Assembly: GCA_030704615.1 (NCBI GenBank) | Contig: CM060734.1 | Span: 52,824,001-52,888,000, forward strand | DNA length: 64,000 bases | From: Takakia lepidozioides | Lineage: Eukaryota > Plantae > Bryophyta | Reading direction: 5' to 3' | Shown here: one piece after another, positions 10,687 to 57,084 of the stretch | How the letters are laid out: every line of letters begins with the position of its first letter | Position numbering within the stretch: the stretch's first letter is position 1 | Notes under the pieces: generated by a model | Databases searched by the model: none | What the model saw: only the letters and a program-made list of their open reading frames with translations | What the model was told of the DNA's origin: nothing | Translations under genes and position numbers: made by a program

Positions 10687-10688
10687 CT

Positions 10689-10700
10689 TGGTATCAGAGC
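10689..10700 (+). promoter_or_regulatory. Primer-binding site (initiator tRNA-Met)
   Basis: TGGTATCAGAGC, 2 nt after the 5' LTR. Confidence 0.95.
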
Positions 10701-10742
10701 TTAGAGTTCAGTACGTGATCGTCCCTGGGGATTGGCCTCATC

Positions 10743-20444: not shown

Positions 20445-20460
20445 TTACCCCTTCCCCCCT
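20445..20460 (-). promoter_or_regulatory. Polypurine tract
   Basis: AGGGGGGAAGGGGTAA on the minus strand, directly before the 3' LTR. Confidence 0.9.
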
Positions 20461-20482
20461 CAAAAAGCCGTGTCCTCACGGT

Positions 20483-24313: not shown

Positions 24314-24639
24314 TTTCCTTCCATTTTCTTGATCATTTCTCTGGTTTTCTATTGGCTGTATTGCTGTGACTGGATTTTAACTTTTATCTTCTTTAGTGGA
24401 CTTTCCCTGTTGGATAGTCCACTAGGATCACACATGCGACATGAATTCAGCTTTTCTGTACTTGTCGTTCGTTCTGTTTTCTTTTCCGTATTCATTAATG
24501 GGCCCGCCTTTCATCCCATTTGACGGCCGTTCTTTTCCTCTTTCTTTTTGACACCTGTCCTTGCACTTCATTCTCTGCTGTGTGTCGCACCCTGACCTCC
24601 ACGTGTCTATTTTTAAAGTAATTTCCGTTTCCTCTTCCG

Positions 24640-30600: not shown

Positions 30601-31024
30601 TGTAACTCAACTGTAATGGTGTTGGAGAGTCTGAACTCTCCGTTGGCTCTGCCACATCCTCTTCTCCTTCTTCATCTTCTGCTTCAGAAACTGGAGTTCC
30701 TGCTTTTGGTGTTCCATGCCAACTCTTATCAAAGATTTCTGTCAAGTCTTTTATCCAAGGATGTACTTCAGATCTTTCACCTCGTGATTGATCTTCTTCC
30801 TGTACCAATTCCCTTAATCTTTCTTGCAAAGAAACAGAAGGAGTGGCATCCAACTCTAGTTCTTCCAGTATAGGTGATGCACTTTTTGATCTTGATGGTG
30901 TGAGAGGTCCAGATGATTCCCCTATGTCTATTCCTCTCTCCCAAAGATATGGATAATTAGCTTTCAGATAGCTTTCTCTTTTTGATGAATATCTTTGTCG
31001 TCTAGCTTCTCTTTCATCACTCAT
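24640..31024 (-). CDS. gag-pol of the non-chromovirus Gypsy, split by single-base frameshifts
   Basis: Gag (YSGKGDPDVHI, QKKHETVEEY), CCHC knuckles, protease LIDGGSG, RT FMDGFSGYNQ and FLDD, RH HCDAS, INT HKGVAGGH..CDEC, WGLDF, SDQG, NGQAE and WKGPY. Confidence 0.95.
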
Positions 31025-31045
31025 GTCCCATGTCTTTCATTTCTT

Positions 31046-31741
31046 TTAATGTGGCAATAACCAAAACTCTCTTCTGTAATATCTCTCGTATATGCCTGGG
31101 TTTCTTTCAAGCTTCAATGCACCCTTGGCTATACTTGAAGTCTCCGTTACCATATAACCATATGGCAAACAAGTCTGAAAAGCTGTTCTTGGTGTGAGTT
31201 TGATCCACAAAATATCCTTTGGAATCCAATTCTTTACCAGTACAAGCTCTTCATGCATATGAGTATAAACATTCACCTTTCTTTCTTCCCAGCCTTCAAA
31301 CTCTACTCGTTTAATGGATAGCAACGCTATCACATAAACTAATGTTGGTAACCAACGTGCTCTTCCTCTACAGGCTACCTGATAAATCTTTATCACTCCT
31401 TTCTCCAGACCCCATTCTGGATCAGCATCATGCACTCGTTTAAGAATATTTTCTTTACATCCGTCTGGCAATTCCAAGAACCTTTGAAAGAATTGTTTGG
31501 ACAATCTTTCTTCCTTCGTTCCACAGGGAATTTGATTCACTTCAAGTTCTTTAATGGTCCAACCACCATGATCCCACCAGATGCCTGTCACATCTGGTTG
31601 TTCATGTTCCAGGTCCCCAGTATGGTCGCCAAATGTCGCGCGGCTTTTACTCACCCATCCCTTCGCTATCCGAGGCGGAAATTCCAAGATAGAAGAGTTG
31701 GAAATCTCTAAGTACTCAGCCCGCGCAGAACAATCAGTCAT
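31046..31741 (-). CDS. Extra ORF upstream of gag (231 aa, unknown function), starting inside the 5' LTR
   Basis: Uninterrupted ATG-initiated ORF crossing the LTR/PBS boundary and ending about 20 nt before the gag ATG. Confidence 0.55.
   Translation of the reverse strand: MTDCSARAEYLEISNSSILEFPPRIAKGWVSKSRATFGDHTGDLEHEQPDVTGIWWDHGGWTIKELEVNQIPCGTKEERLSKQFFQRFLELPDGCKENILKRVHDADPEWGLEKGVIKIYQVACRGRARWLPTLVYVIALLSIKRVEFEGWEERKVNVYTHMHEELVLVKNWIPKDILWIKLTPRTAFQTCLPYGYMVTETSSIAKGALKLERNPGIYERYYRREFWLLPH
31614..31631 (-). promoter_or_regulatory. Primer-binding site, tRNA-Arg-like
   Basis: TGGCGACCATACTGGGGA, 2 nt inside the 5' LTR boundary; resembles the Arg-type PBS of Tat/Ogre-like elements. 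Confidence 0.75.
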
Positions 31742-32666
31742 GACCTACAGCTAGTGTATCATGGGGGTGTTTCCTATGCGTTTCCCTTTTCGCATTCATC
31801 TTAGCTACCTTTGGCATTGATAATTAAGTATCAGTTGCTTCATCAATCTATCGGTTTCCTTCACTCATCCATTCAATCCACAGCTTCTCTCAGATCTCTC
31901 TACACAGTGTGATTGTATCGTATAAGTATCAGATTATGATTTATCAGGTATCAGGCCGAAGCCATTATGTCTCTAATCTGCTCTACAATATCACTACCGC
32001 TTTGCATATAACAAGCATCTACTAATCCTCTTTCCTCCTTCATCGTGCTCTCCATCTCTTGCCTCCGATCTCCGCTCCTGCCTGACTCCGAAGTCCCCCT
32101 CCGAATAATGATCCTCCTTCATTCCCCGTTTCTCCCTTTATCCTCCTATCCGCGGTTCTAACCGTTTCCCTCTCTAACCGTCGTATGTGAACTAACATGT
32201 TCCCTTCACAGGTGTTGTTCCCCACAGTCGTTCCCTGTCCTACTCTTCGTTCCCTATTATCGTGACAGCTGTGTCAAGCGGTGACTGGCTGTGTTTGGCT
32301 GTGTCGGGCTGTGACTGGCTGTGTGGCTGTGCCGGGCTGTGACTGGCTGTGTGGGCTGTGTGGGCTGTGTCTGCTGTGACGACTGTGACGGGCTGTGTGG
32401 GCTGTGTGGGCTGTGTGGGCTGTGACTGCTGTGACGACTGTGACGACTGTGACGGGCTGTGTGGGCTGTGTGGGCTGTAACGACTGTGACGGGCTGTGTT
32501 GGCTGTGTGGCCTGTGACTGCTGTGTCGGCTGTGTGGGCTATGTAACCCCCCTCTACAGTGCGCTGCTGTCACCCCTAAGGCTCCTGTTGGTCTCAGTCT
32601 GTGCAAAAATTAAGGGTACCCTACAGATCCCGTATAAGTTTCTAAGTCCCCTACAGTCCTCTAACA
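31634..32666 (-). repeat. 5' LTR of the non-chromovirus Gypsy
   Basis: Direct repeat of 19412-20444; contains a degenerate GGCTGTGTG/GACTGT array (about 32267-32542). Confidence 0.95.
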
Positions 32667-36372: not shown

Positions 36373-38644
36373 TGTCGTGCGCATACATATCGCTACACAA
36401 CTACATCGCTGTCCAAACCACACCACACATATATGCACAATAAAGTAGTCTGCCACAATCGCCCCCCTAGCTAGTGGATAGGTCCCTCTAACTCCAGATA
36501 GCTACAAGATGTAATAGCCACAGCCGTACTAAGTCCTCTATCACTGTCCATATTGTACTCAACTCTATCGACCAAGAGGCCGGGTACAAGAGTAGCCCCA
36601 TCGTTAGTCGCAGTCTTGCAATCTATGAACTTGAGCCAAGATCTCGTGTGTTCAAGGTCTCCTAGTAGCTTGGCCTTGCATTTCTTGTTAGCCTCCCATG
36701 GTTGTATCCACTCCCACTATCCAATGCATTGTGGACATAACCAATCCCCATCCGGAACCATCTCAAGAGGTGGAGTCAAGCATCCCATATGCCAACCTCT
36801 AGAGCATCGATCACACACCAGCATGGTGGCTGCCCCTTTAGCCGACCCACACAACATGCACCTCAAACTTGCAGATACCACTGCCAGGTTTGGGTCAATC
36901 CTGCCATTGACATTCGGAAGGTGACATGGCGCACAATTACGCACATGGTCCTTCCAAGTTATGCCATCCCGACCCTCCAAGACCAAGTCACCTGAGGGCA
37001 AGACCTCTCGAACCCTCAAAATAACACGTCTTGCAGTCGCATCCAAGGTCGTAGGAGCAGTCTGCTGCAAATAGACATAGTCACCAGGGTTGAATCTTCG
37101 AACCCCAGGACGATAGCCCCCACCACGTATGGTAGCATACCTCAACGTATCACGATGTTGTGCAATGGCAAGGTTCTCGAAAGCCATGTGCATGATTTTC
37201 TTGAACAACTCTGCACGCTGCTCACATGCACGTGCCCACACGTCCGGATCATCAAGGTTAAGAACTGTAGCAGCTTCTCTGCGAATGGATGTAGGCAAAT
37301 CCGGCTCTCGGCCAAAAAGAAGAAAGTATGGTGAGAAAGAGGCAAGTGATGCTTGCTTGCTGAACCTGTAGCCCATGGCTAACCAGGGTAACTGAAGGTC
37401 CCAATCTCCTAGGTGTCCCTTCTGCAAGCCATACTTGCGCAAACCCCTCTTTACTGTCTGAACAACTCTCTCTGCCAAGCCATCGGCCTCAGGATGATCC
37501 TGAGAAGTGGTGCGGTGGTCCATCAAGGCCTTGTCACACAAAGCCTGAAACTCCCCCAAGAACTCTCTCCCTTGGTCCTTGAGTACCTCAGCTGGAGCAC
37601 CGAATCGGCTAAGCACACAATCCAAGAATGCATACGCAGCTCCCTCACTAGCCTTATCAGGCAATGGAACCAACTCGATCCACTTGGAGAAGTGTTCCAC
37701 CATCACCAACACGTACTTGTTGTGGCGCATGGTCAGTGGCAACGGCCCTGCGAAGTCAAGACTCCACCTGTAGCCCAATCCCATGATCGGAAGAGGGTGC
37801 AATTGTGGAGTAGGGGCGTTGAATGAAGCACGCACCCTGTCACACACCATGCACCTAGCCACAAATTGTTGCACCTCTGTGTGCATACCACGCCACCAAT
37901 ACTGCCCCTGCAGTAGACTATAAGTGCGTCGCACCCCAAAATGCCCCAACTCCTCATGGGCATGCCGCACTAACCGTGCCCGCTGTGTTGGGTGAGGCAC
38001 AATCCTCACTCGACCATCCTCCCACATTCGGAGCAGGTGTGTCCCCTCCCACTTGAACCTCTTGGCTTGTTGTAGGATCGAATCCCTCTCCTTGGCAGTC
38101 ACAGTGGCTGCCGTGTCTCCAGTGCGAAGATAGTCCAACACAGCTGAATCCTCATGTATATCTTTGGCACCACCTTGCTCATTGCTGGCCTCAGGGTCAT
38201 CAGACACTTGATCTACAGTCATCCTTGTTGCAGGTCCAACCTGGCCTTCCGCTGCCAAGATACACAGAAATGCAGATGCATGCCATCCGGGCACCATCTC
38301 CTCGTCCGTCTCACCATGCCACCGAGCTCCAGTGTCATCCTGCTGGCTCGTGCATGGATTGCGACTCAACCCATCTGCATTGCGATTGACCAAACCTGGT
38401 CGATGCACCACCTGAAAGTCATACTCTTGAAGGATGAGTGCCCACCGTGCAAGCTTCCCCGTAAGCTTGTCTGACTCCATCAACCACTTGAGTGGTTGGT
38501 GATCCGTGACAAGGGTGAAGAGATTGCCATATAGATAGCACCTGAAGTGTGCCACGGCCCACACTGCAGCTAAGCATTCTCCCTCATATGAGCTATACTT
38601 AGACTCTGCAACGTTGTTCGAGCAGCTAGCATAAGCCACTACGA
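36373..38644 (-). mobile_element. 5'-truncated second copy of the DNMT/PHD Gypsy element (RH-INT-PHD, 3' UTR, PPT, 85-bp terminal repeat)
   Basis: Inverted homolog of 46610-48747. PPT AGCTAGGGGGGCGAT abuts the repeat TGTGGCAGAC...GCGCACGACA (36457-36373). Confidence 0.93.
36717..38644 (-). CDS. RNase H (C-terminal part), integrase and PHD finger in one uninterrupted frame
   Basis: YEGECLAAVWAV, TDHQPL, NADGLSR; HEELGH..CMVC; WSLDF, DQG, DGLAE; C-terminal CMLC..MLVCDRCSRGWHMGCLTPPL..VPDGDWLCPQC (C4HC3). Confidence 0.93.
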
Positions 38645-39977
38645 GATAGGAATACCAAGGAACTTGGCGTATTCTGCTGCCTGGCGGTGTTCTGCAGTGC
38701 AGCCATTCGTCCATTCATTGAATGCTGGAGGATGAGCAAACATGTGAAGTAGCTTTGTAATTTATGCACCTGCCAGAGGAGCGAGCAAGGCCATCAAGAA
38801 TTGAAGGGATGACTTGCGCTGACTAGAAGCTAGGGTTTGCAAGAGAGCAAACTGCTGCTGCGAAAGATGGACAGAGCAGAACTGTGAATATGCTCGTTGG
38901 CGGATGGTTTGCTGAGGGGAGCGCCATAACATAATGACTCTGGCTTCTAGAGAAGCGCCGGAAGAAGCAGCATACGTGGTCTTGGGAAATGATCAATGCA
39001 CTGGTCTGATCCAGAAATTTCCCTTCTTGCCTTATCGACATCAGTTCTGCCCAATAATCAAGCGAGTGTAGTTGTGGCACTTTGAGCGTCAATTGAAAGG
39101 CTTGTAAGCTGGAATCTGATGCGGCTTGAAGAATCTGACCGTGGAGGAATCAGATAAAAGGGAGCAGGGAAGGATGACAATTTAGGCATTAATGTGGTGT
39201 CATCTGAAACTGCCGGTCCCTTGAAGACAGAAGGGGCCCAGCTCACTACACGACCTGCTCGGTCTATGTGAACAATCCAGAACTTGAGGGCAGCCTGTGC
39301 CAACTCCATGTAAAGGCTTACACAATCAGTGATAGCAGATCTGTTGCTGCCACCTTGAAAAATTAGCACGCATGAAGGGCTGTAAGTGTTCTTGATCAAA
39401 GCTAGTTAGCTCTGGTGCTTTCCGGGGTTGCATTGTAAGTGCTCCTGCTTTTGTTGGGAATATTGGTGCAAAGGATTAAGGCTCGGCATAGCTACGGATC
39501 TCGACTGGAGGAGAGCAGGTCACTGGGAACCAAGAGCTGTGGGGGTGCATTTGTAAACACAACTGAAATCCTGGGAATTATAGGTCACGGTGCAAGGGAG
39601 TCTGTGGTGAGAACTACATGAACACGTTTGGAACCTGTTAAGATAACGTGGGAACAGCTTTCAATGGCAAGAACGTTTTGGTGTTTAAAATAAAAAATAA
39701 AAAAAAAAAAAAAACCAAAAAATCCCTTTTGATCTAATTTGAATGATTTAGAGCCTAATTGGTCATATTTTTGTCATATGAGCTCCGTTTGACACAGTTT
39801 TTGAGGGGATAGCTGCAGAAAGGGGAAATCTGCATGTCTACCTATCTACCTATTTTGGACTCTGCTAAAAATCTATGGAATTTTTAGAGTGTGAGTGTGT
39901 CATGAAAGATCCACAATTCTGTTTCTAGAACCTGTTCTGGTCTATATGAGAGACAAATCTGTGGATGTCCTCCTTGT

Positions 39978-40727
39978 ATGGCTGGGGGAAATGAAGACGT
40001 AATTGAAGGGCAGGTCTCTTCTCTTAGCCTATGCACACAAGGGGACAAAATTTATGTTTCCCAAGGGGCTCAGACTGATTTGAGTGGAGAACAGTTGGAC
40101 GAGTTGATTGCATACTGGGAGTCAGGCATTAGCAGTAGACAACAAACTGCTGTAGTTGGCGTTAAGGGCCTTAATATCACTTTGGACAGTCAGAACTCTG
40201 TTGGAGCCAGCAGTTCTGCAGCTGTAAGTGAAATACCAAAGTGGGTGAAAGCTAGGCTTGGAACACAGCCAAAGTCAGCCCTGGGGACCAAGGTGTTCAG
40301 CCACAAGGCCGTGGTGTACTGGAGCAGAGGAGCAGAAGCTACACAAGTTTGTGCAATTAGACATGGTTGTAGCCGGACACGCTCTACACGAGGCAACCAC
40401 GAGCGGGGGTTCATTAGCAATGAAAAGTTTGTGCTGCTTGAAGGAGATGCAGTCATTCGCAATGAGGACACCTGCAACCGTCTCAAAGCTTTCGAGTTGA
40501 GAGACTGTTAGACCCTACCTTTATTTTCTTTAGTGTTCAGTGAGCGGGAGATAGGGGAGTATTGTTTTGTCTCTACTTGGCAGAAAGAGGAGGAGGGTTG
40601 GTTAGAACGAGCTACTGTAGCTTGGGACAAGGTTAGTGGCAGGTTTCTGGACATAGATACACCTCCTACACCTTACCATCATGCAGAGCGAGGCACTTTG
40701 AGAGAAGTCTGGCAGTTGATAGCATAG
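39978..40727 (+). CDS. ORF of unknown function upstream of the DNMT-element gag, interrupted by one TAG
   Basis: ORFs 39978-40511 and 40533-40727 share a frame, separated only by TAG at 40509-40511 (about 250 codons). Confidence 0.4.
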
Positions 40728-41248
40728 ATCAGGATTAGATCTTGCTTGGTCGGGCCTCTATTCTTCCCCTCCCTCTTGTTACTATTTCCATTACTTTGTA
40801 CTTGTAGTTGCCAAAGCCTCTCTTGGTGGAGGCCAGTCAGTCCGGGGTTTTGGGCTGGGATATTTTGCAGGATCAGTATTGCAGATGGATTTTGGTGTGG
40901 GGGTGTTGATGTTTTGATTTCTTGTGTTTGGATCCCCCCCAACACCTGCATGCTTGACTGTGCGCCATGTTGGTTTTGTGTGGGCGTTTGCTTTCATAGG
41001 GATTAGGCCGGATTTGATCACCGGTCAATCCTAGAGTATGCTCTCGGTGGTGAGGCTGGAGTGATGACCAGCAAGACCACCAGTGTTTCTTCTATGGTGA
41101 GACTGGGTTGATGACCAGCCAACCATAGGAGTTCTTGCGGTGGATGCAGGTGCAGGTGCCCTGAGCCACTGGGATATGACCCTTTAAACTGCAACAGGTG
41201 CCCACCCGTGTCACTATTAGAATTAGTACTAGAGCCTTATAGTGTCAC

Positions 41249-42605
41249 GTGGGGGAGGTGCACATTGTGAGTGTCATCACGGAGTTACCCAAGGGTTTTG
41301 AGGGGAGTACGGCTATAGGCAGTAACAGTGAGAGTGGGTTCACAAGACGAGGTATTCGGTTCAGACCACCTTCATCTCCACCCTCAACTAGTGCAGAGTC
41401 AGACACAGACTCGGAGGCTTCATCAACAGGTGTGCAGTTTCATTCGCCATTGTTGTGGGACGACATGGAGGAGATGTATGGAGCTACCAAGGGGCCTCGT
41501 AGGTACTCTGGAGCTGTGGGCACAATCGAGCTGGATGACTTTATCCAGGAGTTCGACAGTTGGTGTGATTTGCAGCAGATGCGCAATCCACAGCTCTTCA
41601 CCCCATTCATGGCGTGGAAGGGATTGTTCCAGCATTTGGAAGGCCCGCCTATGGACGATTACCACGTGTTCAGGCGAGGACATGAAGCAGAAATTGAAGA
41701 GTGGAGGATGTATTGGTCACATGACTACGTCTCTATTACTCGAGGAACAACGCGACCAGTAGCGGCATCAGCACCAATACCTCCCACGGCTAGCACTAGT
41801 AGTGGAACAAGTAGTGCCGGTACTTCTGCAGAAGGTCCTACTACTCATACTCCCACGACTACAACACATGTGCCTAGATTCAGCCCGATGGTGGAGTTCT
41901 TCCAGGAGTTGCGGAGGAACTACCAAGGTGTACGGACAGAGAAGCTGCGAAGTTTGCAAGACTTCCAGCGCAAACCGAGTGAGAGCCTGCGAGAGGCGTA
42001 CATTCGTATGAGGTGCTTGATAAGTGTGACCCAAGGGGTTACTGAAGCTCTAGTATGGAATTTTGGACAAGGAGCTCAGGAGAAGGGTGCGGGATGCAAC
42101 CCTGTTACAAGCAGCCCAACCCACATTAGCAGATGTGTTTCTGCTGGCTGAGCGGATTGAGCTCAACATGGTGGAGGAGCAAGTTGTTACCATTGGATTT
42201 GGCAAAGACATGCCTGCATGAGGTGCAGCTGCCAGCCCACGGGCACAAGGGATTGCCCAACAACGTGGTCAGGGGGGCAAGGTTTCCCAACCCAAATTTC
42301 ATGGAGCTTACAGGGGACCTAAAGTGCAGAGGCCAATAGCATCTTTTGCAAGCCAACATCAACTAGGGGTGATATGTTGGACATGTGGAGGACCCCATGT
42401 CAAGAGAGATTGCCCAGAGAGTGGCAAAAGGCCGACACAAGCACAACTTGCACAGTTGCAGTGTGGGCATTGTGGCAAGTATGGGCATGGAGATGCCCAG
42501 TGTTATGACTTGCATCCTGAGTTGCGCCCAGGCCAGTTCCAAGGGAACAATGGTGGCTGGGGGCGAGGTGGACCAGCCCAGAGAGGAGGAGGTGGCCGGA
42601 CATAA
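41249..42605 (+). pseudogene. gag of the DNMT/PHD Gypsy
   Basis: LQDFQRKPSESLREAYIRM gag motif; zinc knuckles CWTCGGPHVKRDC and CGHCGKYGHGDAQC; RGG-rich tail; frameshifted. Confidence 0.8.
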
Positions 42606-43369
42606 GGTGCAGGGCAAGGGCAAGCTCAACATGGCCAAGGACGCGGAGGTCAGCATGTTGACCAAGGCATGGCCAACCGGCTTCAGCAGCTAGAGCAGAG
42701 GCTCGCTGCCATGGCTACAACTCAGGTGGTACCAGTTCCCAGGCGGGATGGTCCACCTCTTGCTCCTGAGGGAGGAGATATGGGAGGCATGGGATTCATG
42801 TGCGGAGCAGCACTACCACTAGAGCAGGTGGAGTCTGCTGCAGCCGTGACTCGAGGAGCAGCACGAGTTCCTGAGCCACGAGGTGCAGAGGTGGAATTGG
42901 ATCCACAACGTGAGGAAGCAAAGCCGTCAGGCGAGGCTTCCTCAGTCATTCACATTGGCGGAGACAGTGTCGACGCCATCCATGGCACCTAGTTCTCGGC
43001 CGACTGTTACCGAGGCGGAGGTTACTATGCCATTGGGGAGAGCTACACGTGCATCACTGACACCTGCTACCAAGGCTAGTGTAGCTGGTGTGTTATTGGG
43101 GGCAACCACCTCTGTGTGTCAAGCCCCATTGTTCTCGGCAACCATGATTGCGACGCTGGGGGTAAGACCAGCTACAGTGTTCAGACTAGCAGCAACACTC
43201 TGTGAGAGTGGGGAGGTCACTTCATCTTCTGCAGAGTTACTGGAAGGTGTAGTGGCAGAGGGATCCTCGGATTTGAGGGTCAAGACTGCCACGGCTGCGC
43301 CATGGCAAGCTGCAGCTACCAGGTTGATGGAGCTGCCAGCTAGGCCAGCCTTTGAGCGCGCCATGGTGA

Positions 43370-43803
43370 CACCTGGAGTTGTCTTGCTAGACAACCAGGA
43401 TGGCATTTTCTCTTTGAGTGGACCAGCAGGCAAGAAGTACCGGCCACTGCGGGTCTTGTTGGACTCGGGAGCTCAGCCACTGATGTTGGGCAGAGCTGCT
43501 ATTGCAGGTTTGGGCCTCATGGAGGCGGATATGGAGCCTTGTCCTTTCCATATACAGACATCTCTGGGAGGATCAGAGCAGGCTCGGGGCATGACACGGC
43601 GTGAGTTGGCCATTAGACTGCAGCCGGATCATCCTATAGATGGCTCAGTGATGCGAGCCAAGGCCATTATAACAGACGCGGTCTCTTACAATGTCCTCAT
43701 TGGTGGGGCAGTGTTATATCCCATGGGCTTCACCTTGGACTTTTGGGAGGAGTCAGCATCCTACAGGCCTGGATGGCAGTCAGGGGATGGTCGTCGTGCA
43801 TAG
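43370..43803 (+). pseudogene. Retroviral-type aspartic protease
   Basis: RVLLDSGAQPL catalytic motif and downstream YNVLIGG; in frame with the methyltransferase ORF across TAG 43801-43803. Confidence 0.85.
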
Positions 43804-44172
43804 CTCCCTGTGACATTCATTGGAAGTATTGCGGCTGCCCAGCGGGGCAAGATGCCAACACTAGCTGCCTTTACAGCTACAGTTAGTTGGCCTGGAGAGT
43901 TGCTGGAAGGCAATGCCCATGCAGAGGATGTGCCACCTTCAGCAGAGCAGGATGACATGCATGGTATGGCGGAGTTGTCTGCCATGGTTGCTCACACTCC
44001 ATTGTGGGGTACGAACGAGGATTTGCAGCAGGCTGCTGATGGACGGGTGCAACAAGCCTGGGTAGAGGCCTTCGTACTGTCAGGAGAAGAGGAGAGTGCG
44101 GTGATTGCACCAGGACCACCTCAGTTGTCGCCATTGGATACCACACCTCTTGTGTGGCAGTGCCCGGATGAA

Positions 44173-45100
44173 GGCATATGCCTTCTGGACTTGTTTGGCG
44201 GGATCAGCACTGGATTGGCTGAAGTGTTGCAAGCAGGTGTACGAGTTCGACGTTACCTGTATGTGGAGAGGGATAAGACTGCACGACACGTCTCACTACG
44301 CCATGTTGCTCAGTTGGTACAGCAGTACCCTGATTTGTTGCTAGTGTCTGCAGTTCGTGGATACCAACAAGCCTTGCCAGCAGACATTTCGTTGCTGGGG
44401 GCGCAGGATTTGGAGCAGGCTGGTTCCATTGATCTGGTAGTGGCAGGTTGGCCCTGCCAAGGGCATTCATCAGTTGGGCATGACAATGGATTGCGAGACT
44501 CGAGGACGGGTCTGTTTTGGGAGATGGTGCGGGTTTTGCGTCACTTGCAGCTTCATCAAGCTGTATCTCCAGCATACATCTTGGAGAATGTGCCACTGAT
44601 GGGTGATTCTTGGGCTAGGGTGATGGCCAGTGTGCATCAAGTCCGGTCGTGGCTTGGGTCAGCAGTGGGGTCACGGGCTCATCGTCCATGGCTATGGTGG
44701 ACTAACTTGATGCCACCCGCATTGCTCAAGCGTGCATTTGATGGGGTGCAGCGGCCAACACACCTCACAGTGGATAGCATTTTGGACACAGGGAGGCAGT
44801 CTCAACGTGTGAGACACGATGACCGTTCGCCTTTGGTAGTGTCAACAGGGTGGGTCAACCACGAGCAGCATTACCTACACTGCTCAGCTTCCCAGGATCC
44901 CATGCTTTTCGGGATGGTGGACCTGGCCTCTTGTGGGATAGCCAGTTGCAACAATTAGTGGAGCCCAATGCTGACGAGCGCGAGCGGGCGATGGGTTTTA
45001 CCACTGGTACCACGGCGGTGCCATCTCTTTCTGAGGCATCACGTCGTCAGGTGTTGGGGCAAGCAATGGATCTCAATTGCTTGACCTGGATTATCAGCTT
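44173..45100 (+). pseudogene. Cytosine-5 DNA methyltransferase domain (DNMT3/DRM-like) embedded in pol
   Basis: Motif I LDLFGGI, II YVERD, III ADI, IV AGWPCQG, V GLF, VI ILENV, VIII AHRP(W)LWWTNL, then after a frameshift at about 44840, IX ERERAMGF and X RRQVLGQAMD. Confidence 0.93.
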
Positions 45101-45529
45101 GGCTATGGCTGAGCAGCGTAGAGTACGGAGTACACTTCCCTTCATGGTCTCCCTGCCTACCGAGACGGTACAGGCAGCAAGTGGGGCGAGCAGGTGAGGA
45201 CCACGAGGTGCAGGCCGCATCCATGGCACACGTGGGAGGTGCTCGAGGTTCAGAATGAGTTGGCAGCCAAGGCGGCGGTGATGGATCAGGTTGGGGATTT
45301 TTCTCAGGTTGAGGAGGTCCTCAAGGATGGGATGATGGGGCAGGGTGAGACATTGTCACTGATAGAGGAGGCAGTGGTCACTGCTCAAGAGGTTGCAACA
45401 TAGCAACCACGGGACGCGTCTTCTACCTCTAAGCCTGCTGGACTCAAGGTTGCAGTCACGGAGGACAACTGGGAGCCTGATGTTGGACCTATACTTACCG
45501 GAGGAGAGAGACGACGTATACGACGGTTC

Positions 45530-48402
45530 TTGAGGGCTTACAGGAACTGCTTTGCCTTTAGTTTGAAGGACTTAGGAGCACTGAAGGGTCAAGAGATTCG
45601 CATTGAATTGGCTACTGACACGCCAATCTTTCGGAGACCCTATAGATACAGTGACATAGAGAGGTCCTTGATTCAGATGAGAACTCAGGACCTTTGGGAG
45701 GCTGGTTTGGTGGAGCTATCTAGGGGAGAGTATGCTTCAGCCATAATGATGCCAGCCAAAAAGGATGTCTATGGCAATTGGACGGAGAGACGTATGTGCA
45801 GTGATTACCGGCCTGTAAATCGTCAGACCAAGTCCAATAGGTATGCTATGCCGACACCAAAGGAGATCTTTGATGCCATTGGGCATGCCAAGGTCTTTAG
45901 CACTTTGGATTTACGATCCGGATATCACCAGTTGCCGATCAAGGGGGCGGATAAGTAGAAGACGACATTCTGGGGATCAATGAGCACATGAAAGATTGCC
46001 TATACCAGTGGCGGTTCTTACCATTTGGGCTTAAAAACGCTCCTGCAGAGTTTCAAAGAGTCGTGGACATGATTCTAGCAGGGGTGGAGTTTGCTCGGTG
46101 CTACATAGATGACATCATCATCTTTAGTGCTACGGTGGAGGAGCATGAGAGACACCTTCAGGTGGTATTTGAGCGCTTGAGGGCGCACGGATTGAAGTTA
46201 CATCCGGGGAAGTGCAAGTTTTTCCACAACCAGATTGAGTATCTGGGTCACATGATATATCTTGGAGGATTGGGGGTACAGCAGACTAAGGTAGAGGCCA
46301 TTGCACAGATTCCACGCCCCACGGATGTGAGCCGAGTTCGAGCTTTCATGGGGTTGACAAACTATTATAGACGGTTTGTCAAGGGATTTAGTGCCATTGC
46401 AAAGGCTCTAACCAAGCTGACCAAGGTGGACCAGGAGTGGCAGTGGGAAGATGAGCAAGAACGAGCTTTCCAAGAGCTCAAGGCGAGGTTGACCTCGGCG
46501 CCCATCTTGAGACGACCTATCAGGGGGCGTCCTTTTCAGCTGCATACAGATTGGAGCATGCTGGGGCTTGGAGCGGTGCTCACACAGGTGGATGATGAGG
46601 GAAGAGAGTTCGTAGTGGCTTATGCTAGCCACTTGAACAATGCTGTAGAGTCTAAGTATAGCTCATATGAGGGAGAATGCTTAGCTGCAGTGTGGGCTGT
46701 GGCACACTTCATATGCTATCTATACGACAATCTCTTCACCCTTGTCACGGATCACCAACCACTCAAGTGGTTGATGGAGTCAGACAAGCTTACGGGGAAG
46801 CTTGCACGGTGGGCACTCATCCTCCAAGAATATGACTTTCAGGTTGTGCATCGACCGGGTTTGGTCAATCGCAATGCAGATGGGTTGAGTCGCAATCCAT
46901 GCACGAGCCAACAGAATGACACTAGAGCTCGGTGGCATGGTGAGACGGACGAGGAGATGGTGCCCGGATGGCATGCATCTGTATTTCTGTGTATCTTGGC
47001 AACGGAAGGCCAGGTTGGACCTGCAACAGGGATGACTGTAGATCAAGTGTTTGATGACCCTGAGGCCAGCAATGAGCAAGGTGGCGCCAAAGATATACAT
47101 GAGGATTCAGTTGTGTTGGACTACCTCCACACTGGAGACACTGCAGCCACTGTGATTGCCAAGAAGAGGGATCGGATCCTACAACGAGCCAAGAGGTTCA
47201 AGTTGGAGGGGACACATCTGCTCCGAGTGTGGGAGGATGGTTGAGTGAGGATTGTGACTCACCCAACACAGCGGGCACGGTTAGTGCGGCATGCCCATGA
47301 GGAGTTGGGGCATTTTGGGGTGCGACGCACTTATAGTCTACTGCAGGGACAGTATTGGTGGCGTGGTATGCACACAGAGGTGCAACAATTTGTGGCTAGG
47401 TGCATGGTGTGTGACAGGGTGCGTGCTTCATTCAACGCCCCTACTCCACAATTGCACCCTCTTCCGATCATGGGATTGGGCTACAAGTGGAGTCTTGACT
47501 TCGCAGGGCCGTTGCCACTGACCATGCGTCACAACAAGTACGTGTTGGTGATGGTGGAGCACTTCTCCAAGTGGATCGAGTTGGTTCCGTTGCCTGATAA
47601 GGCTAGTGAGGGAGCTGCGTATGCATTCTTGGATTGTGTACTTAGCCGCTTCGGTGCTCCAGCTGAGGTACTCACGGACCAAGGGAGAGAGTTCTTGGGG
47701 GAGTTTCAGGCTTTGTGTGACAAGGCCTTGATAGACCACCGCACCACTTCTCGGGATCATCCTGAGGCCGATGGCTTGGCAAAGAGAGTTGTTCAGACAG
47801 TAAAGAGGGGTTTGCGCAAGTATGGCTTGCAGAAGGGACACCTAGGAGATTGGGACCTTCAGTTACCCTGGTTAGCCATAGGCTACAGGTTTAGCAAGCA
47901 AACATCACTTGCCTCCTTCTCACCATACTTTCTTCTCTTTGGCCGAGAGCCGGATTTGCCTACATCCATTCGTACAGAAGCTGCTACCATACGTGGAAGA
48001 GGCTATCGTCCTGGGGTTCGGAGATTCAACCCTGGTGACTATGTCTATCTGCAGCAGACTGCTCCCACGACCTTGGATGTGACTGCAGGACGTGTTATTT
48101 TGAGGGTTCGAGAGGTCTTGCCCTCAGGCGTCTTGATCTTGGAGGGTCGGGATGACATAACTTGGAAGGACCATGTGCGTAATTGTGCGCCATGTCACCT
48201 TCCGAATGTCGATGGCAGGATTGACCAAAACCTGGCAGTGGTATCTGCAAGTTTGAGGTGCATGTTGTGTGGGTCTGCTAAAGGGGCAGCCACCATGCTG
48301 ATGTGTGATCGATGCTCTAGAGGTTGGCATATGTGATGCTTGACTCCACCTCTCGAGATGGTTCCTGATGGAGATTGGTTATGTCTGCATTGCATTGGAT
48401 AG
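45530..48402 (+). pseudogene. RT, RNase H, integrase and PHD finger of the DNMT Gypsy
   Basis: RRMCSDYR, LDLRSGYHQ, PFGLKNAP, YIDD, HTDWS, TDHQPL, HHCC, DDE core and PHD at 48259-48402. Stops at 45956, 47242 and 48334, plus a frameshift near 45980. Confidence 0.95.
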
Positions 48403-48749
48403 TGGGAGTGGATACAACCATGGAAGGCTAACAAGAAATGCAAGGCCAAGCTACTAGGAGACCTTGAACACACGAGATCTTGGCTCAAGTTCACAGATTG
48501 CAAGACGGCGACTAACGATGGGACTACTCTTGTACCCGGCCTCTTGGTCTATAGAGTTTGAGTACAATAGGGACAGTGATAGAGGACTTAGTACGGCTGT
48601 GGCTATTACATCTTGTAGCTATCTGGAGTTAGATGGACCTATCCACCAGCTAGGGGGGCGATTGTGGCAGACTACTTTATTGTGCATATATGTGTGGTAT
48701 AGTTTGGACAGCGATGTAGTTGTGTAGCGATATGTATGCGCACGATAGC

Positions 48750-49100
48750 TGTCAAGTTAAATAAACACAGTGTGAAACTAACTAGAATAAAGCTAGTTAT
48801 TTGTATTTAACACTTGGATTTAGTTCAAGTGTTAAGTCAGGTGTCAAGTTTAGTTTGACACCTGAACCGTCTTATCTTCACGAGAGCGTCAGTCGTGTGG
48901 CTGATCTTTCTCGAGTTGAGCCTGCACGACCGAGCTCCTTCACCGTTCAGAATCTGAGTGTGCTTATAAAGGGATGATAGGTAGTTGTGGGGTGGAGTCC
49001 CCATAGCTTGGGGTGCCCCTGGCTCGACTATTATGTTAAAGAGTGATGGTGTTGGTTTTCATGTTTCTTGTGTCAACAGTGTGTTCTTAGTTTCTTATCA
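48750..49100. repeat. 351-bp solo-LTR-like segment with TG...CA ends and two hairpins
   Basis: Starts TGTCAAG and ends CTTATCA. Hairpins TTAACACTTG-N9-CAAGTGTTAA and TCAGGTGTCAA-N7-TTGACACCTGA. TATAAA present; no TSD found. Confidence 0.4.
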
Positions 49101-49101
49101 T

Positions 49102-49186
49102 TGTGGCAGACTACTTTATTGTGCATATATGTGTGGTGTAGTTTGGACAGCGATGTAGTTGTGTAGCGATATGTATGCGCAGGACA
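49102..49186 (+). repeat. Third copy of the 85-bp terminal repeat
   Basis: TGTGGCAGACTAC...GCGCAGGACA, with the same start and end points as 48663-48747 and 36457-36373. Confidence 0.9.
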
Positions 49187-52100
49187 CATGCCTGTCCTCT
49201 AAATGCCTAAGGGAAAGAAAAGAAACATGACAAGACTTCGCAACATGAGTAGAAAAAGAAAGTCTATCTGCCTAATAACCCCATGGTCTACAGCCAGGAT
49301 AAGAAATGAAGGCCCAACACACAAGTATCATGGACTACTCTTAACGCCTAGATTCCAACCACCAAACAATCATATCCACATTGAGCATCTTTTGAACAGC
49401 TTTCCACCCCCAATCCAAAGGTCTATGCCAATGGTTCATTCCTGCAACACCCAAGCTCTATTCAAGCTGTAACAGGGTCTGCTTGAGGGGGGGTCTCAGG
49501 TGTATCTGGGGCTGCACTTGGGGGGGTCGCTGCAGGCACAGTGGATTTTGCACCATTTGTTGTCGTAGGAGTGACTGAGGGTGCTGGAGTTGCTGGCGGA
49601 GGAGGGGGGGGGGGTTGCTGCAGCATGTGGGCCGGAGGATTATGCTTTAGCTTCAGAAGGACCTGCCGCATGCGGCCTAAATCAGTAGGCTTCCCAGGCT
49701 TGGGACCCTTGTTGGCCACCACGCCAATTTTCTTGTCCTTATCTTTGCCACGGCCCTTCACCTCTAGTGATGCCGGCAGTTCATTGGGAATCAGCTCTGT
49801 CACTGGACGACGTAGTGACACCACAAGTCATTTTCAATATGAGTGGTTAACATCAGTGATTATTTTGTGTTCTCTTTGTAGTGTGTATATGTAAGAGCCA
49901 TTTCACCTGAGGATGGCATTAATGTCCCCCAAAACCAAATCGCTCCAAGTTCAGTGTGCCAAATCCAAACCTCTTGGATCCAAATGTATGTACAGCTTGT
50001 TGCACTTGTAAGAGAGAGAGAGAGAGAGAGAGAAAAAAAAACAAATGAGCTTCCGACCTGGATGCAGCTGATGGACCACTTCAATGCTTCCATGCTTGAC
50101 ACTACTTTCACATTTCCCTTTCCTCTCTTCGTCATCTTCCTCCGTAAGCCACCAACGTAGTGCCCATACCATTGCATTTCTGCACAACTGTGGGGACCAC
50201 AACCAATGTAATGAAGCAGCTTGTTGGAGTGGGGAGTCGATTTAAGAAGGGAAGTAAGGATGAAGTCCGAAAGATATGGTCTGTGCAGGTGGCAAGATCA
50301 CAAAACTTTTCTTCACGTTCCTGAGATCACATGTGGAACTGGGACAGTCCCACAAGGAACACAGTTAAAGAAAAGGCCTCACTTTGTGTGAAATCCACAA
50401 ATTCTTCCATGTTCTCCTAATGCCCCATTTCGTCCCTTGCCATCTATTCCTTCCAGAATTTCAGCCTTGAAGTCCAAAGTCCAAACAGACTTATTTCTTC
50501 ATCTTTCGTAATATATCGTTCAGGACTGTTCCGCTCCTCCTCCATCCAAAGAGAGGCGATCAGCTCTGGAATTTCTGACGGTTCTCCCCGTCCGTAAATG
50601 GTTGGTTTGTGGGAGAATCTAGTTTGTTAGGAATGTTTAGCGTTGTGGCCGGGATACGTTGATATTTGCAGTGGCGTCGTACAATGCAGAAGTCTATCGA
50701 GTACTGTTGAGCTAACTCTATCTTTTGTGCGTTATAAAGTTCAAAAACCTGGTGAGGGTACTTGGGGTAGTGTCAAGTTCCAAACGTATTCAACATCCTT
50801 TCACAACGAGCTAGACCACTTTCTCGCCTGTTCTCCAAGTTGAGAAATTCCGATGTGGAAGAGAGGCTGGAATGCCGAGATCTAGACTTCACCTTACTTA
50901 ACACTTCAAAAATCATGCCAACTGCTAAGGTGCGCTATAGTAGCTGGATGTACAACTCCTGGTCGGACTCTCAATACACGTACTTCATTCAAAGCTTGTG
51001 GACGACTTATGTAGCATGAAGATCTCTATTTCATGTGAATGTGATCTCATCTCTTGCCCGTTCATCCCACTAATAAGTACTTTCACATGCGAGGCATCCT
51101 GCATTATGATTTTTTTATTGTCTCTTTGTTATGTAAGAGGATCCGAGACTTGGTCCGCTTATTCCAAAACTGAACTCTCTAACGTCGAGTGTGGTTCTGA
51201 CATTCGAGCTCGTCTCGCATCATCCATGGTGAGACCTGACTCCTGACATCTTAAAAATTTTAAAATTTTGAAATGAACGATCACCCACGTTACATAATTC
51301 GGTTGGCACCTTATGAGGCATCGTTGATTGGTGGGATCGGCTGCAGCAAGTCAGGACTCAGGAGTGATAGGGGAGTAGTGTGTGGTCACTCCTGGTGTTA
51401 CACGATCGCAGAGGCAGGCTCCTACAGGCTGTAATAACACACACACCTAAGTGTCACCTGGGGAAGGAACGTGCCGCCAGGCTCATACTCGAGTTTCCCG
51501 CATACGGTTCCAGCAACCTGTACAACATGTAAACCCGCAGGAGTCATGTCTGACTCTAGAGCTTTTATAGCAGGTTTGTACAAGCTAGCTTCAATGCATG
51601 CTTTCATCTTCTGGTTCGAAATGGTACATACTTACCACTTAAAATATGGTGATAGAGCAGACTTTGATGAGGGAATGTCATTATAATAACAGACAGCCGC
51701 ACCTTTACCTGGTCAACTGGCTGCGTTTCAGTCAATTGACAGTCGCACGCAGCAGACATCCTGACACAAGATGGCTTGCGAGATTCATGACTCGAGAACT
51801 GGAGCATTTCAAAGTGGAAGAAGATGAGCTGTTCATGCCCATGGCTCTTGAATTGCCCAATACATAGTGGTATTTCCCTTATCAGTGGCCTGGCTTAACA
51901 ATGAGCATCAAGCTAGTTATGGCGATCACGAACGAACTTATGTTATATAAACTGCACTACTGGGCTCTTGAATGTCATGCTATAGTCTCGATCCTGTCCC
52001 TTCATCCCTTCTGCGGGCCGTGCTACCGCCCTTCTCGGTCAAATCAGCAATTAGGCCAGTCAAATCCAAAGTGATGGAGAGCTATCCACCCAGTCTCACC

Positions 52101-52579: not shown

Positions 52580-55500
52580 TCAGTGGCACCAACGAAAGAC
52601 GAGAGCGCCCGGTATTTTCCCGGTCCGCCGGATGATCTCCGCCCGGCCCGCTGTTTTGGCGGCCTGCTCTCCACGGCGGGCCTCGGCTGCCGCCCGCAGA
52701 TCCTCCGCCCGGCGCCGGGTCGCCGCCAGCTTGTTCATCAACCTCTCGTTGCCGTGTGACCTCATCCTTTCCACCTTCACCTGCCGGGATTCAAGCACTC
52801 GTCAATACTGTGCAGCAGGAATCGCACAGTGTAGCGGCAGTATACAACAGCTTTATAGTTCAGATTGGGGCCCACTGGGCTTTTCTTAACTGGCTTTTGT
52901 CCGAAGACTACAGTTTCTGGTGAGCCCTCTTATCCACATAGAGATATGGCACCCTACAAATCTGGGAGGCCATGGCTGAATTTACACCAGTGCTAAATTA
53001 GTCCAAGGCTTTTCTCCCAACAGCATTTTGAAGGATGCAGTCAAGCTGAGTTGCAACAACTCTGGTTCTTGGGTTGTACCTCTATTCTCCGCATCTCAGC
53101 CTCGGCTTTGGCCTTTTCGTGATTCTCCCAAGCCTGGATCTTTGTTTCCTCACGATTGAATCTGTAGCCCATCACCCTCATATTTCAGTAAACGATGTAC
53201 AGTGGACAGGTCTAGCAGACTAAGCTTTGTGGGTGCGAGATGTTCCTGGCAGTCCAGTTCCAGGGAGTACTAAACTTGTGGTGTGCCATGAAATGTCCTC
53301 CAGACCAAGTAGCATCTACTGTGATCAGGTGAAATGCTTGCAGGCAGACACCTAATAAGTGCCTTCAACTGTCCTACATTTGGCAAAGCACTAGACTACA
53401 TGATGCATCTCCCCCTGGTTAGTTTATCTGGTTTGTTGGCTGTTCAATCCAGACTACTCAATCTATTAGGAGGTGGAATTGGAAGGGGAAATACAGCAGA
53501 CAGCTCCCCTTCATAACTGCTGAATAACAAAGCAGAAGGAGAGTCTGAGAAGTGACTGAGTAACTGACCTGGCGACATATTTTGCATGCTCTGCCTCCTC
53601 CCAGGCTGCAGCCCTTGTGGCGAGCACATTTTTCCTTACTTCCTCCAACTCAAGACTGGCCTTCAGGGATTTGGCTGCATCTGCTTCTTCTTCCTCTTTG
53701 GTTGCCCATGCTGCTATGTTCGCCTTCCCTAGTTGTGTGCCCAATGCTAGAATCTCCTGTCGTGTTTTTGCTTGCAATTCTTTCCCAGAGAGAACCTTTG
53801 ATGGCTCAGTCTCTTCCATACCACAGTTAGAGTCAGATGTTGGAGTTGAGTTGTGGAGAGTCCTCCCAGGAGTAGAGGGTCGGGACCCAGTTGGGCTTCG
53901 AAGGTTGGGTGTGGTTGCCCTTAGAGGGGTAGCAGTTCTGGAAGGCTCCACACTAGCTATAGGTGTCATTTCTGTTCCCATGTCTCGCATGGAGATGGAC
54001 CTTACATTGAGGGCCGATGCAACAAACGCCGATGCCTCATTGGGCGAAGTGGATTGGCTGGGCTTGGGCAGCTCGCTCACCTTGGTAGGTGAATCCTCAT
54101 CTGAACACAAGTAGTGGTTAGCAATATGCACTGAAGCCAAGTGACCAAGTATACTTTCTTGGTGTGACCAACAAGAATTGAATTGAATGGAGAAGAATTG
54201 AAAAATTGAATGGATTTGTTCAATGCCTATGCATAGTTAGTTACCATATAAATTCCCTCCAAAACTTAACAATCTGCAACCATTTCCTCTTGGAATTTGC
54301 ACTACAGGAAGCCAAGTGAGTGGGGACTCCCAGGGTCCAACAAAAACCTAGAGGCAACAAACATTAGCAGATACATAACAAACTTCTGAATTTCCAGTGA
54401 TGCATGGAAGATGGGAGAGAGACAATGCACAGGGATGGAGGGGGAACATACCCAAGGGATTCGACATACCTTTGGTAGGTGATTCAGAAGTGGGCTTTGC
54501 TGTCCGGAGTGTCGGCTTTGATAAAGTGTCATCAGTAGCTTCTGGCGACGTGCTGCCTTCCTTTGTGTCGTCATGGTCGCGACCGTACTGATCATTAAGA
54601 GGGTAACGGTCCAGAGATGTATTGGACCGTGCTTTCCCAGCAGGCATGAATGCAAAACGGGAAGCAGCCCCTTCACCCTGACTGGCAATGTACTTCGTTG
54701 TGTCTACCTTCTTTGTGCGCTCTCCTGGTTGTCTTTGATTGGTTGTCTTGGGTGAATGATCCTCTCCCTCACCGCTGTTCTCACCAGAAGATGGGGCATC
54801 AACCCCACAATTAACAGATGTTGATTTTGTTGAGTGGGATATCCCATTTTGGATCCCAGACGGACGCCCACCCTGGGTAGAGAAAGACACCTTCTTTGAC
54901 ACAGTTACTCCAGCCTGGGTTGCGACAATGTGTGCTTGAAGAGGTCCGCTTCTCGATTTGCTCTTAATAGGAACCTCACTCGCCGACAACCATTTTTCTG
55001 CATCATCCCACTTAGAAGGGGTGGGCTTTAAAAGAGGCCCCACCACAGTTCGGTGGCCACCAGCCCTATTGAAGTCAAAACTTGCAGAACTTTCTTTCTC
55101 AAAGCTGCTCTCGTAGTCAAAAGGTTCACTGTCACTGCTCCTTGCTGCATGGCTTGAATTAAAACTAAAAATACTGGCACTCCCGTTCGGGACACTGGCA
55201 ACTTGGGCTGCTGGCCGTGCTGTGCCAGAAGCTAATCCACCATATTTTTTCTTGGTTTCTTCTCCTTTCTCCATCATTGAGCTCTGCACAGCTTTGAATG
55301 GGGCAGTTTGAGCCTCTTTTGATTGGGCATCCCTCAGATTCAGCGATTTCTTGGTCACAAAAGCAACTTCACCATCATTGTCTGCTAGATGCAGAGCATG
55401 GCCCACCTCATGCACTGTGGCCCAGCCATTCTCTATGGAGCTGCTCAAGTCTTTTTCAGAACGTTGGCTAAGTGCACCTGCATTCAAGGAAACAGAGAAT

Positions 55501-57084
55501 TTTAAGGACAGAAACACCCTTCGAAGCCTTCCTATATGAGCAAATCTTAGCACTGGGGCTTGGTCTAGAAGATATGGCAAGAGCCTGTGTTTTCCAGAGG
55601 CTTCTTTTACCGGGTGCCAGATCCAGGCCTCCGATTTGTCAACAGAGAAAAGCCTACACGACACACAGACTCCAGGTGGTGAGATGGGCCTCATGGTTTC
55701 TCTGTTCTTGCAATAGAATTGTCCTTTGCTGTGTCAGTTTTCATCCAGGTTGCCACTAACATTCTTTCAGTTGATACATCTCAATAACTGAAACTGTAAA
55801 GAGGAGCGTTCCTTGGGTCAGGAGGGTAGATACCAACTGAGAAACGAACTGGAATAACAAGGGAAGCTGGGGCTCCAATCGTAAGCCTTATCATGTAGGA
55901 CAGTTTCCACAAGCTAGCCAAAGGGAAGTCCTTCATCACACTACAGCCGAACAACCTCAAACAGAATGCACTCAAAAGCACATGAAGGTGATTGTCAGCA
56001 ATCTTCCACTGGTATTTACCTTTCAATCCCTGTCTGCCTGGGGTACTGATGACAGATTTCTTGACTCCATGAGCACATCCCCCCTATGTACATGATTATG
56101 GCAGTCAGTCCAACAACGTCTCTACGTGAGTGAAGGCTCTCTTGCACAACCTAGCAGCAGGACGTTTTCTCACAAGTAGATTAAAGTATCCCAGAATGCA
56201 GACCCATTATCTATGTTCCCCCTTCCATGTAAGGGGTGTAGCATAACACAGCCGGAATACAAATACATATGTAGCCTCGTCTTCTGTGACACGCAATAAG
56301 TGAGAGAGTGCTGTGAAAGATTCCACCTTTGGCAGTTCATCCCTTGGGGAATCACCATAGAAGGCCTCGTCATCTCCATCAGAGCTACAATTGCCAGTGG
56401 AGATACTCTTCACGTCAGGGTAGTCCGTTCTGTCCATTTCACTCGATGCCTTTGACAATGTTGACAAAGTTGGACTGCTCGAGTTACTATGCAGTGCTGA
56501 ATTCCTTATCACGCATTTGGGGCTGTTTTCAGCTGCCGAAACACACAGAGGAATCAAAGAGTTAGCGACCGGTAGTGGATATCTCGTCACCTTGATCAAC
56601 TTTTGCGGAGGTTTAGTGTGTGCCTCGGACATATAGAAGAGGACAAGGCTTTCCTTTCCACAACAAGGGATGGAGACATAAGACAAATGAAGGTGTATTC
56701 TTATACTAAAGACGAAGGCTGAGTGAGACACAACTGTGCAACTGTAAATCGCAACATACCTGAACCACCTCCATTCTGAAGTCTTGCTTTGCTGACGAGA
56801 ATACTTTGCAATGCAGAGGTCGCCAGGCTGGTGTCTTTGCTCCGCAGGTGTTTTCCTCCCAACTGAGAAGGTTGCGCACCGTGGGCTGGCGACTTGAGCT
56901 GAGACTTATAGCCAGGGATAGCTCCTTGACCGCAATAGATGGGTTTGGCAGAACCCAGACTGATTGAGTCGGCTCGGTAGATCAAAGTACGGTGGGGGTT
57001 GCGCTTGGCATGCCCCTGCTGGGGAGGAGGTGAGAGACCCTCTTCTCTCTGAACGTTGCAACCAGCGTTCTGTCGAGTGATCAT
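52580..57084 (-). CDS. Remorin family protein (long N-terminus, group 6-like); 5' exon structure approximate
   Basis: Exons 52580-52780, 53080-53161, 53569-54100, 54470-about 55478, and probably about 56270-56532 and 56760-57084. Motifs PSKWDDAEKW, RDMGTEMTPIASVEPSRTATP, LGKANIAAWATKEEE and Remorin_C (AAAWEEAE..IQAWENHEKAKAEAEMRRIEVKVERMR..). Confidence 0.9.

Follow-up and report, generated by a model that had tools for sequence, protein, structure and literature searches.

Within a 64,000-nt stretch of the Takakia lepidozioides genome (assembly GCA_030704615.1, contig CM060734.1, positions 52,824,001 to 52,888,000 of the forward strand; hereafter "the window"), we found a decayed copy of an abundant bryophyte (moss and liverwort) Gypsy-type retrotransposon equipped with a DNMT3-like DNA methyltransferase of its own. 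On the plus strand this copy encodes, in order, Gag (from 41465), protease (PR), a C5 cytosine methyltransferase (MT), reverse transcriptase (RT), RNase H (RH), integrase (IN or INT) and a PHD finger, and its family follows the Gypsy order PR-RT-RH-IN with an embedded DNMT3. The window copy itself is dead and non-functional: its reading frames are shifted near 42050, 42920, 44841, 45185 and 45960-45990 and interrupted by several stops, and motif VIII of the enzyme is damaged. As the best explanation of the family's layout, we propose with moderate confidence that one frame encodes Gag-PR-DNMT, that RT-RNase H-integrase-PHD is reached through a leaky stop, and that the enzyme would thereby enter particles at Gag-like numbers and methylate newly made complementary DNA (cDNA).

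That the enzyme belongs to the family was evident from several searches. A homolog search returned 36 proteins; those with an organism name came from Marchantia, Calypogeia and Sphagnum and reached 70% identity. Among 25 Gag matches, all 13 of those spanning at least 960 amino acids (aa) carry the domain, and none of the 25 runs from Gag or protease into RT without it. We also compared metagenome loci (the best 80 of 135 related stretches, selected by the methyltransferase domain itself), and here a protease lies upstream of the domain in 65/80 and RT downstream in 60/80. Run X1 contributed 80,050 contigs along the element; their summed depth was 0.64-1.04 million over the enzyme and, at a comparable level, 0.59-1.24 million over RT and RNase H. 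A high-copy family carries the domain between protease and RT. The initial view that the enzyme is part of pol rather than a separate insertion survives in its second half, as the domain is integral to the element (13/13 long Gag matches), but not in its first, since the domain ends the Gag-PR frame ahead of a conserved stop.

This stop is central to our interpretation. The enzyme closes the first open reading frame (ORF1, Gag-PR-DNMT), and the stop separates it from RT; whole ORF1 proteins from Marchantia, Calypogeia and the metagenome families end 65-132 residues past motif X (30 in protein P0016). In the window, sequence comparison places the ORF1 tail at 45129-45400 (HPW motif at 45218-45226, frameshift near 45185), followed at 45401-45409 by the conserved in-frame stop in a tobacco mosaic virus (TMV)-type context, TAG CAA CCA, which we predict to be a readthrough site from its conservation among relatives and from the published motif (PMC2754532, PMC3159437). 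Enzyme and RT are in frame in 46 of the 60 loci that have both domains, and in 57 of these 60 an RT-frame stop followed by YA[AG]C[CT] occupies the homologous place; no locus has a sense codon there, and the remaining three show an insertion or offset. The main contexts are TAG CAA CCC (35 loci) and TAA CAA CCC (13 loci); of the 832 premature stops that these loci contain, taken as a control, only 14 have CARYY after them. Four divergent families keep the stop (window TAG CAA CCA; locus L009 TAG CAA CCA; main family TAG/TAA CAA CCC; locus L069 TAG TAG CCA), and their linkers align over just 22-59 nt.

In the window (45401-45409) and in L009 the stop forms the exact TMV motif UAG-CAR-YYA, in frame. 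CAR YYA after UAG is the TMV signal, a known plant readthrough signal, and UAA is read through as well (PMC2754532); readthrough is further stimulated by 3' stems 8-12 nt past the stop (PMC3159437). In all four families a stem is predicted to begin roughly 10 nt past the stop, and the TMV-type motif is here combined with a predicted extended stem; in the window, folding prediction gives a plus-strand stem at 45414-45517 with arms at about 45414-45430 and 45500-45517 and weak covariation. Of 58 sequences, 50 have a predicted long-range stem, and none of 69 control windows attains the value of the Takakia window. The first Met after the stop falls inside the RT-like region (codon 92 in the window, 48 in L009). 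Algal relatives in which domain and RT are fused with no stop are what one would expect if the functional product is a fusion protein. Taken together, we consider it likely, from these comparative patterns, that ribosomes read through the stop.

A number of points weigh on the other side. The main family has CCC rather than YYA; the independent cases of the stop come to about four because 68 of 75 loci represent one family, and conservation was counted in metagenome loci. The stem statistic is post hoc, having been defined after the fold was seen, with 8 of 69 controls reaching the L069 value; whole-window stem z-scores are -0.14, -2.04 and -0.70, the covariation term is 0.01, and the 3' arm of the stem also encodes conserved residues. 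An ATG stands at codon 3 after the stop in the main family and at codon 4 in L069, and the Candida element Tca2, which has an in-frame gag-pol stop, shows no readthrough in yeast (PMC2194720). The last two observations would suit an arrangement in which RT and the domains after it (ORF2) need no readthrough and are translated from a separate or spliced RNA, or by reinitiation at the nearby ATG, the stop being the ordinary end of ORF1; Tca2 would then be a precedent for non-canonical bypass, and the 14 of 60 loci that are out of frame across the linker would fit too. Window and L009, however, have no nearby ATG, the strict in-frame spacing of 46/60 loci is interrupted only in decayed copies, and the stop context is that of a known readthrough motif, so that we regard expression without readthrough as unlikely.

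If the leaky stop operates as we propose, Gag-PR-DNMT would be made in bulk and a minority of ribosomes (from a few to tens of percent, as we infer) would pass on into RT-RH-IN-PHD. Because the enzyme lies before the leaky stop, it would be present in particles at Gag-like numbers, where the protease would release it. It could then methylate cDNA de novo before or at integration (in CG and, by analogy with DNMT3, perhaps CHH contexts), new copies would thereby carry a host-like mark, and the PHD finger may guide the integrase to a chromatin state. What the sequences themselves show is the order of the domains, the stop kept with its context, the split repeats, the TG..CA ends, the 4-bp target duplications of relatives and purifying selection; the steps just described go beyond this. 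We counted the de novo CG methylation reported for SymbioDIRS-Dnmt3 domains (PMC5890265) in favor of this mechanism, along with the conservation of catalytic residues and the purifying selection described below; the KnitGypsy-Dnmt3 domain gave no methylation in yeast, a result that its authors call inconclusive but that counts against it (PMC5890265).

The enzyme might instead work in trans in the nucleus, where abundant ORF1 product would methylate genomic copies or insertion sites and so temper the family or set local chromatin. The position in ORF1 predicts the high output that this would call for, bryophyte host DNMT3s exist and act de novo (PMC6453930), and self-restraint is among the options listed by de Mendoza et al. 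(PMC5890265). The two copies in the window, moreover, differ mostly by transitions at CG (16/127 sites) and CHG (19/159), set against 31/721 at CHH, and this CG/CHG excess indicates that copies end up methylated. Host enzymes account for that mutation pattern, however, and in chlorophyte-type relatives the domain lies between RNase H and integrase, which ties the enzyme to the cDNA-integration complex; we therefore judge nuclear action in trans to be improbable. The ordinary CG and CHG decay of the window copies also implies that methylation eventually reaches the family all the same. CG depletion was considered as a sign of self-methylation and rejected, as observed/expected ratios of about 0.4-0.54 in the element, 0.28-0.5 in the flanks and 0.7-0.93 in a young chromovirus provided no usable signal.

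The methyltransferase domain (44110-45128, plus strand) was identified from Pfam, motifs and the predicted fold of a homolog. It matched PF00145 at 45.4 bits (cut-off 22; E 9.5e-12), the profile check that the sequence-only reading had put forward, and the C5-MTase motifs lie where that reading had placed them, in canonical order: I LDLFGGIS (44185-44208), IV GWPCQ (44446-44460), VI ILENV (44578-44592), VIII RAHRPW (44674-44691), IX EPNADERERAMGF (44961-44999) and X LGQAMD (45054-45071), numbered as we take the I-X series to run. Two details required amendment. The RxR-like motif VIII is present as RAHRPW but damaged, with seven residues missing ahead of it and Trp in place of the second Arg of HRxR, which is intact in 6/6 relatives compared; and the enzyme continues the protease frame across one stop (43801-43803) only in its N-terminal half, as a frameshift near 44841 puts motifs IX-X in another frame. 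That stop is premature and private to the window copy, with 296,805 of 298,461 depth units in run X1 differing from the window and relatives open at this place.

The closest solved sequences were DNMT3A (E 9.5e-8) and DNMT3B, followed by HhaI (1.2e-3) and DRM2 (0.01). The naturally open homolog L009 gave a predicted fold with a mean predicted local distance difference test (pLDDT) score of 95.6, its top Foldseek match was DNMT3A-DNA (E 4.2e-20, TM 0.70/0.83), and all 32 listed rows were DNMT3 entries; by this model the domain folds like DNMT3. With DNMT3A as best solved relative, unpermuted I-to-X order and no introns, the suggestion of a DNMT3-like enzyme rather than a captured host DRM stands. 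Between families (window versus locus L002), dN/dS (nonsynonymous over synonymous divergence) was 0.246/1.48 and 0.146/2.63 for the two enzyme halves (ratio about 0.06-0.17) and 0.187/1.93 and 0.145/2.22 for RT, and with dN far below dS, purifying selection acts on the enzyme domain as on RT, as far as sequence comparison can tell. Against this, between-family dS is saturated, and within-family dN/dS is 0.39-0.54 for the enzyme and 0.41-0.49 for RT; values of 0.4-0.5 in both are expected from decay after insertion. Neither the domain searches nor these comparisons produced any of the outcomes that the sequence-only reading had named as refuting it. The domain could conceivably be a nucleic-acid-binding or RNA-modifying module that performs no DNA methylation, as the inactivity of the Klebsormidium domain in yeast might suggest (PMC5890265), but 42 aligned homologs keep the catalytic C, Q, E and HRxR with little or no variation and the predicted fold matches DNMT3-DNA complexes, leaving this very unlikely. 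A recent passenger in the window copy, by capture of a host gene or nested insertion, would fit a copy so full of breaks but is largely refuted, as the domain sits at the same position in liverwort, peat moss and algal relatives, is carried by all long Gag matches, has no lower coverage in run X1 and, unlike host DNMT3s (PMC6453930), has no DUF3444 (in Pfam the whole ORF1 of P0057 matches only PF00145 and zf-CCHC).

The ends of the element proved unlike those of the long terminal repeat (LTR) retrotransposon it had been taken for: repeat searches of the window and of relatives found no LTR pair for the window element, and relatives have split direct repeats. These elements begin with A1 and the coding region, followed by a purine run, B1, two bases, A2 and finally B2; this layout is complete in four loci (L025, L053, L062 and L068, two of them one insertion). 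The plus strand of the window has B1-A2-B2, with a polypurine tract-like run at 48652-48658 (the same run precedes B in most related loci), B1 at 48661-48747 (98% identical to B2), a 2-nt GC spacer and then putative A2 at 48748-49099 (from 48750, starting TGTC; arrangement deduced from relatives), and B2, placed by repeat comparison, at 49100-49186 as a 3' terminus ending GACA. No A1 partner for 48750-49099 was found in the window even at word size 7. Relatives end in TG..CA, and among 12 loci holding both repeats nine have a 4-bp target duplication and none a 5-bp one; one of the three others is cut by a contig end. The undecayed B-A junction is near-palindromic (GACA-GC-TGTC or GACA-AT-TGTC; spacers GC in 4, AT in 2 and TC in 1, n=7), and the integrase could cut this CA-NN-TG junction, which the split repeats recreate, to give the usual ends with a two-base overhang. 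Having no LTRs, the family would be missed by structure-based annotation.

Many copies have a single B and no A2-B2, five of them (L023, L026, L041, L054 and L071) still with a 4-bp duplication, which may reflect B1-B2 recombination or assembly collapse. The second window copy (36373-38644, minus strand; repeat and Pfam searches), 96% identical and 5'-truncated to part of RNase H, integrase, an intact PHD finger and a single B, is of this kind.

Splits of this sort, in the order A1...B1-A2-B2, characterize Ngaro/PAT elements of the DIRS order. The family shares with that order this layout and an internal end-to-end junction, and differs in having an rve DDE integrase, TG..CA ends and 4-bp duplications rather than a tyrosine recombinase. 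With canonical LTR retrotransposons it shares TG..CA ends and a 4-6 bp duplication (seen at relatives' loci), but not paired LTRs. Troyka elements were considered and rejected, having CG..CG ends, a 3-bp duplication and a distribution given as animals only (PMC12440569), versus TG..CA and 4 bp here.

In a wider search, cluster representatives were scanned without a profile, which gave 468 proteins (E up to 1e-10; best 150 listed), and two architectures emerged among relatives, PR-MT-RT and RT-RH-MT-INT-PHD. The latter defines a large sister group with the methyltransferase between RNase H and integrase (e.g., P0079, P0033, P0055), RT-RH-MT-INT-PHD being present in 26/219 proteins, and we found no paper describing it. 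A quick RT-RH tree, from which the cluster mates P0051 and P0054 were left out and in which P0118, an MT-RH protein, bears a wrong label, placed the land-plant elements in one group (8 rows, support 99) and RT-RH-MT-INT-PHD in another (38 rows, support 99), and an enzyme tree (FastTree, unrooted, with neither host DNMT3 nor P0019) separated the two less firmly. Among named members, Closterium and Mesostigma account for 5 of 10 clusters looked up, and Scenedesmus for 1 of 10 looked up in the sister group. Four proteins (P0084, P0256, P0261 and P0262, the last from Closterium) have PR-MT-RT in one frame with no stop, and Mesostigma has PR-MT proteins. Viral contigs held only distant phage-type methyltransferases (17 loci, 26-45% identity).

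Elements of this kind are already known from KnitGypsy-Dnmt3 of Klebsormidium nitens (de Mendoza et al. 2018, PMC5890265), and the proposal that the window element is of the same Gypsy-type, DNMT3-bearing kind is borne out; it is probably a relative, likened by features, with no Klebsormidium sequence identified among the matches. Both are Gypsy-type elements whose DNMT3-like domain has neither introns nor permuted motifs, and both have DIRS-like repeats and show purifying selection; the paper's text places the Klebsormidium domain in a Pol polyprotein ORF, whereas the bryophyte domain ends the Gag-PR frame before the conserved stop and has a land-plant host, and the portions of that text available to us make no reference to readthrough or a PHD finger, nor to target duplications or a junction (PMC5890265). 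SymbioDIRS-Dnmt3 is likewise a retroelement with a CG-active C5 methyltransferase, but of dinoflagellate tyrosine-recombinase type (PMC5890265), and in EpiLTRs the C5 methyltransferase domains are described as falling with DNMT4 and being accompanied by DAM and chromodomains (bioRxiv 10.64898/2026.05.21.726589). MuLV, SIRE1 and Tca2 also have an in-frame stop between structural and enzymatic frames (PMC2194720), which here comes after protease and methyltransferase, not after Gag. The host DNMT3s of non-flowering streptophytes share the DNMT3-type catalytic domain (PMC6453930), that of the element being free of DUF3444 and introns and embedded in a polyprotein; unlike DRM, it has no circular motif permutation (order I to X). 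Later papers, in the text available to us, mention this kind of element in "streptophytes" (PMC12344493, bioRxiv 10.64898/2026.05.21.726589); our literature searches turned up no account of bryophyte copies, the stop or the target duplications, although supplements of those later papers may hold land-plant sequences. What the present analysis adds is threefold: a stop conserved together with its context; split repeats that come with a target duplication and a palindromic junction; and a second architecture.

The remaining plus-strand domains of the window copy are variably preserved. The Gag region (41465-42920; tblastn of P0004/P0057) has two CCHC-like knuckles (42375-42413, 42462-42503) and 63-65% identity to Marchantia ORF1 starts, and is broken by its two frameshifts (near 42050 and 42920) and by stops. 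The aspartic protease (43363-43800) has LLDSGA (43456-43473) and weak Pfam matches (E 0.039-0.059), scoring below the cut-off even at E 0.039. RT with YIDD at 46102-46113 (PF00078) and RNase H (PF17917) span 45473-46900 with a frameshift near 45960-45990, a DDE integrase with zinc-binding domain (PF17921, PF00665) spans 47245-47990 downstream of a stop at 47242-47244, and the C-terminal PHD finger (48259-48402) is interrupted by a stop (48334-48336), with PF00628 matching weakly here and at E 1.9e-10 in the truncated minus-strand copy.

The interval 38645-41460 separates the two copies, which face outward; from at least 40300 onward it has high family coverage in run X1, and an open frame of 201 codons within it (39906-40511) has no Pfam match. 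The flank just 3' of the element (49185-49236) recurs inverted 13 kb away (62235-62286), and the element was therefore inserted into another repeat. A remorin gene at 53511-55733 has its best named matches in Sphagnum (48%), Physcomitrium (39%), Ceratodon (36%) and Diphasiastrum (36%), which in itself points to a bryophyte host, probably a moss. At 9961-16672 is a young chromodomain Gypsy element whose LTRs are 98-99% identical, with an open frame of 1135 aa and no CG depletion; with the remorin gene it confirms two of the neighbors from which the sequence-only reading had suspected a land plant. A further Gypsy element lies on the minus strand (19412-32552); its near-identical terminal repeats stand 12,222 nt apart and include 9-nt tandem arrays, and an additional region follows its integrase.

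Since 2018 it has been an open question why retroelements carry the enzyme that silences them, and the hosts known so far do not lend themselves easily to experiments. Because Marchantia polymorpha has relatives of this family (annotated as ordinary genes), and methylation mutants and reporters exist for it, the question becomes testable, with the proposed leaky stop as a concrete prediction on enzyme dose. More tentatively, and with less confidence than in the explanation proposed above, we envisage an old, overlooked branch of LTR-less integrase retroelements of green plants in which an active DNMT3 would have been kept from algae to bryophytes while shifting between polyprotein positions, in which, in land plants, a virus-type leaky stop would pack capsid-level enzyme so that every new copy is pre-methylated, and in which the integrase would cut a palindromic internal junction. 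If this is true, these elements could also be an unrecognized source of de novo methylation in Marchantia and mosses.

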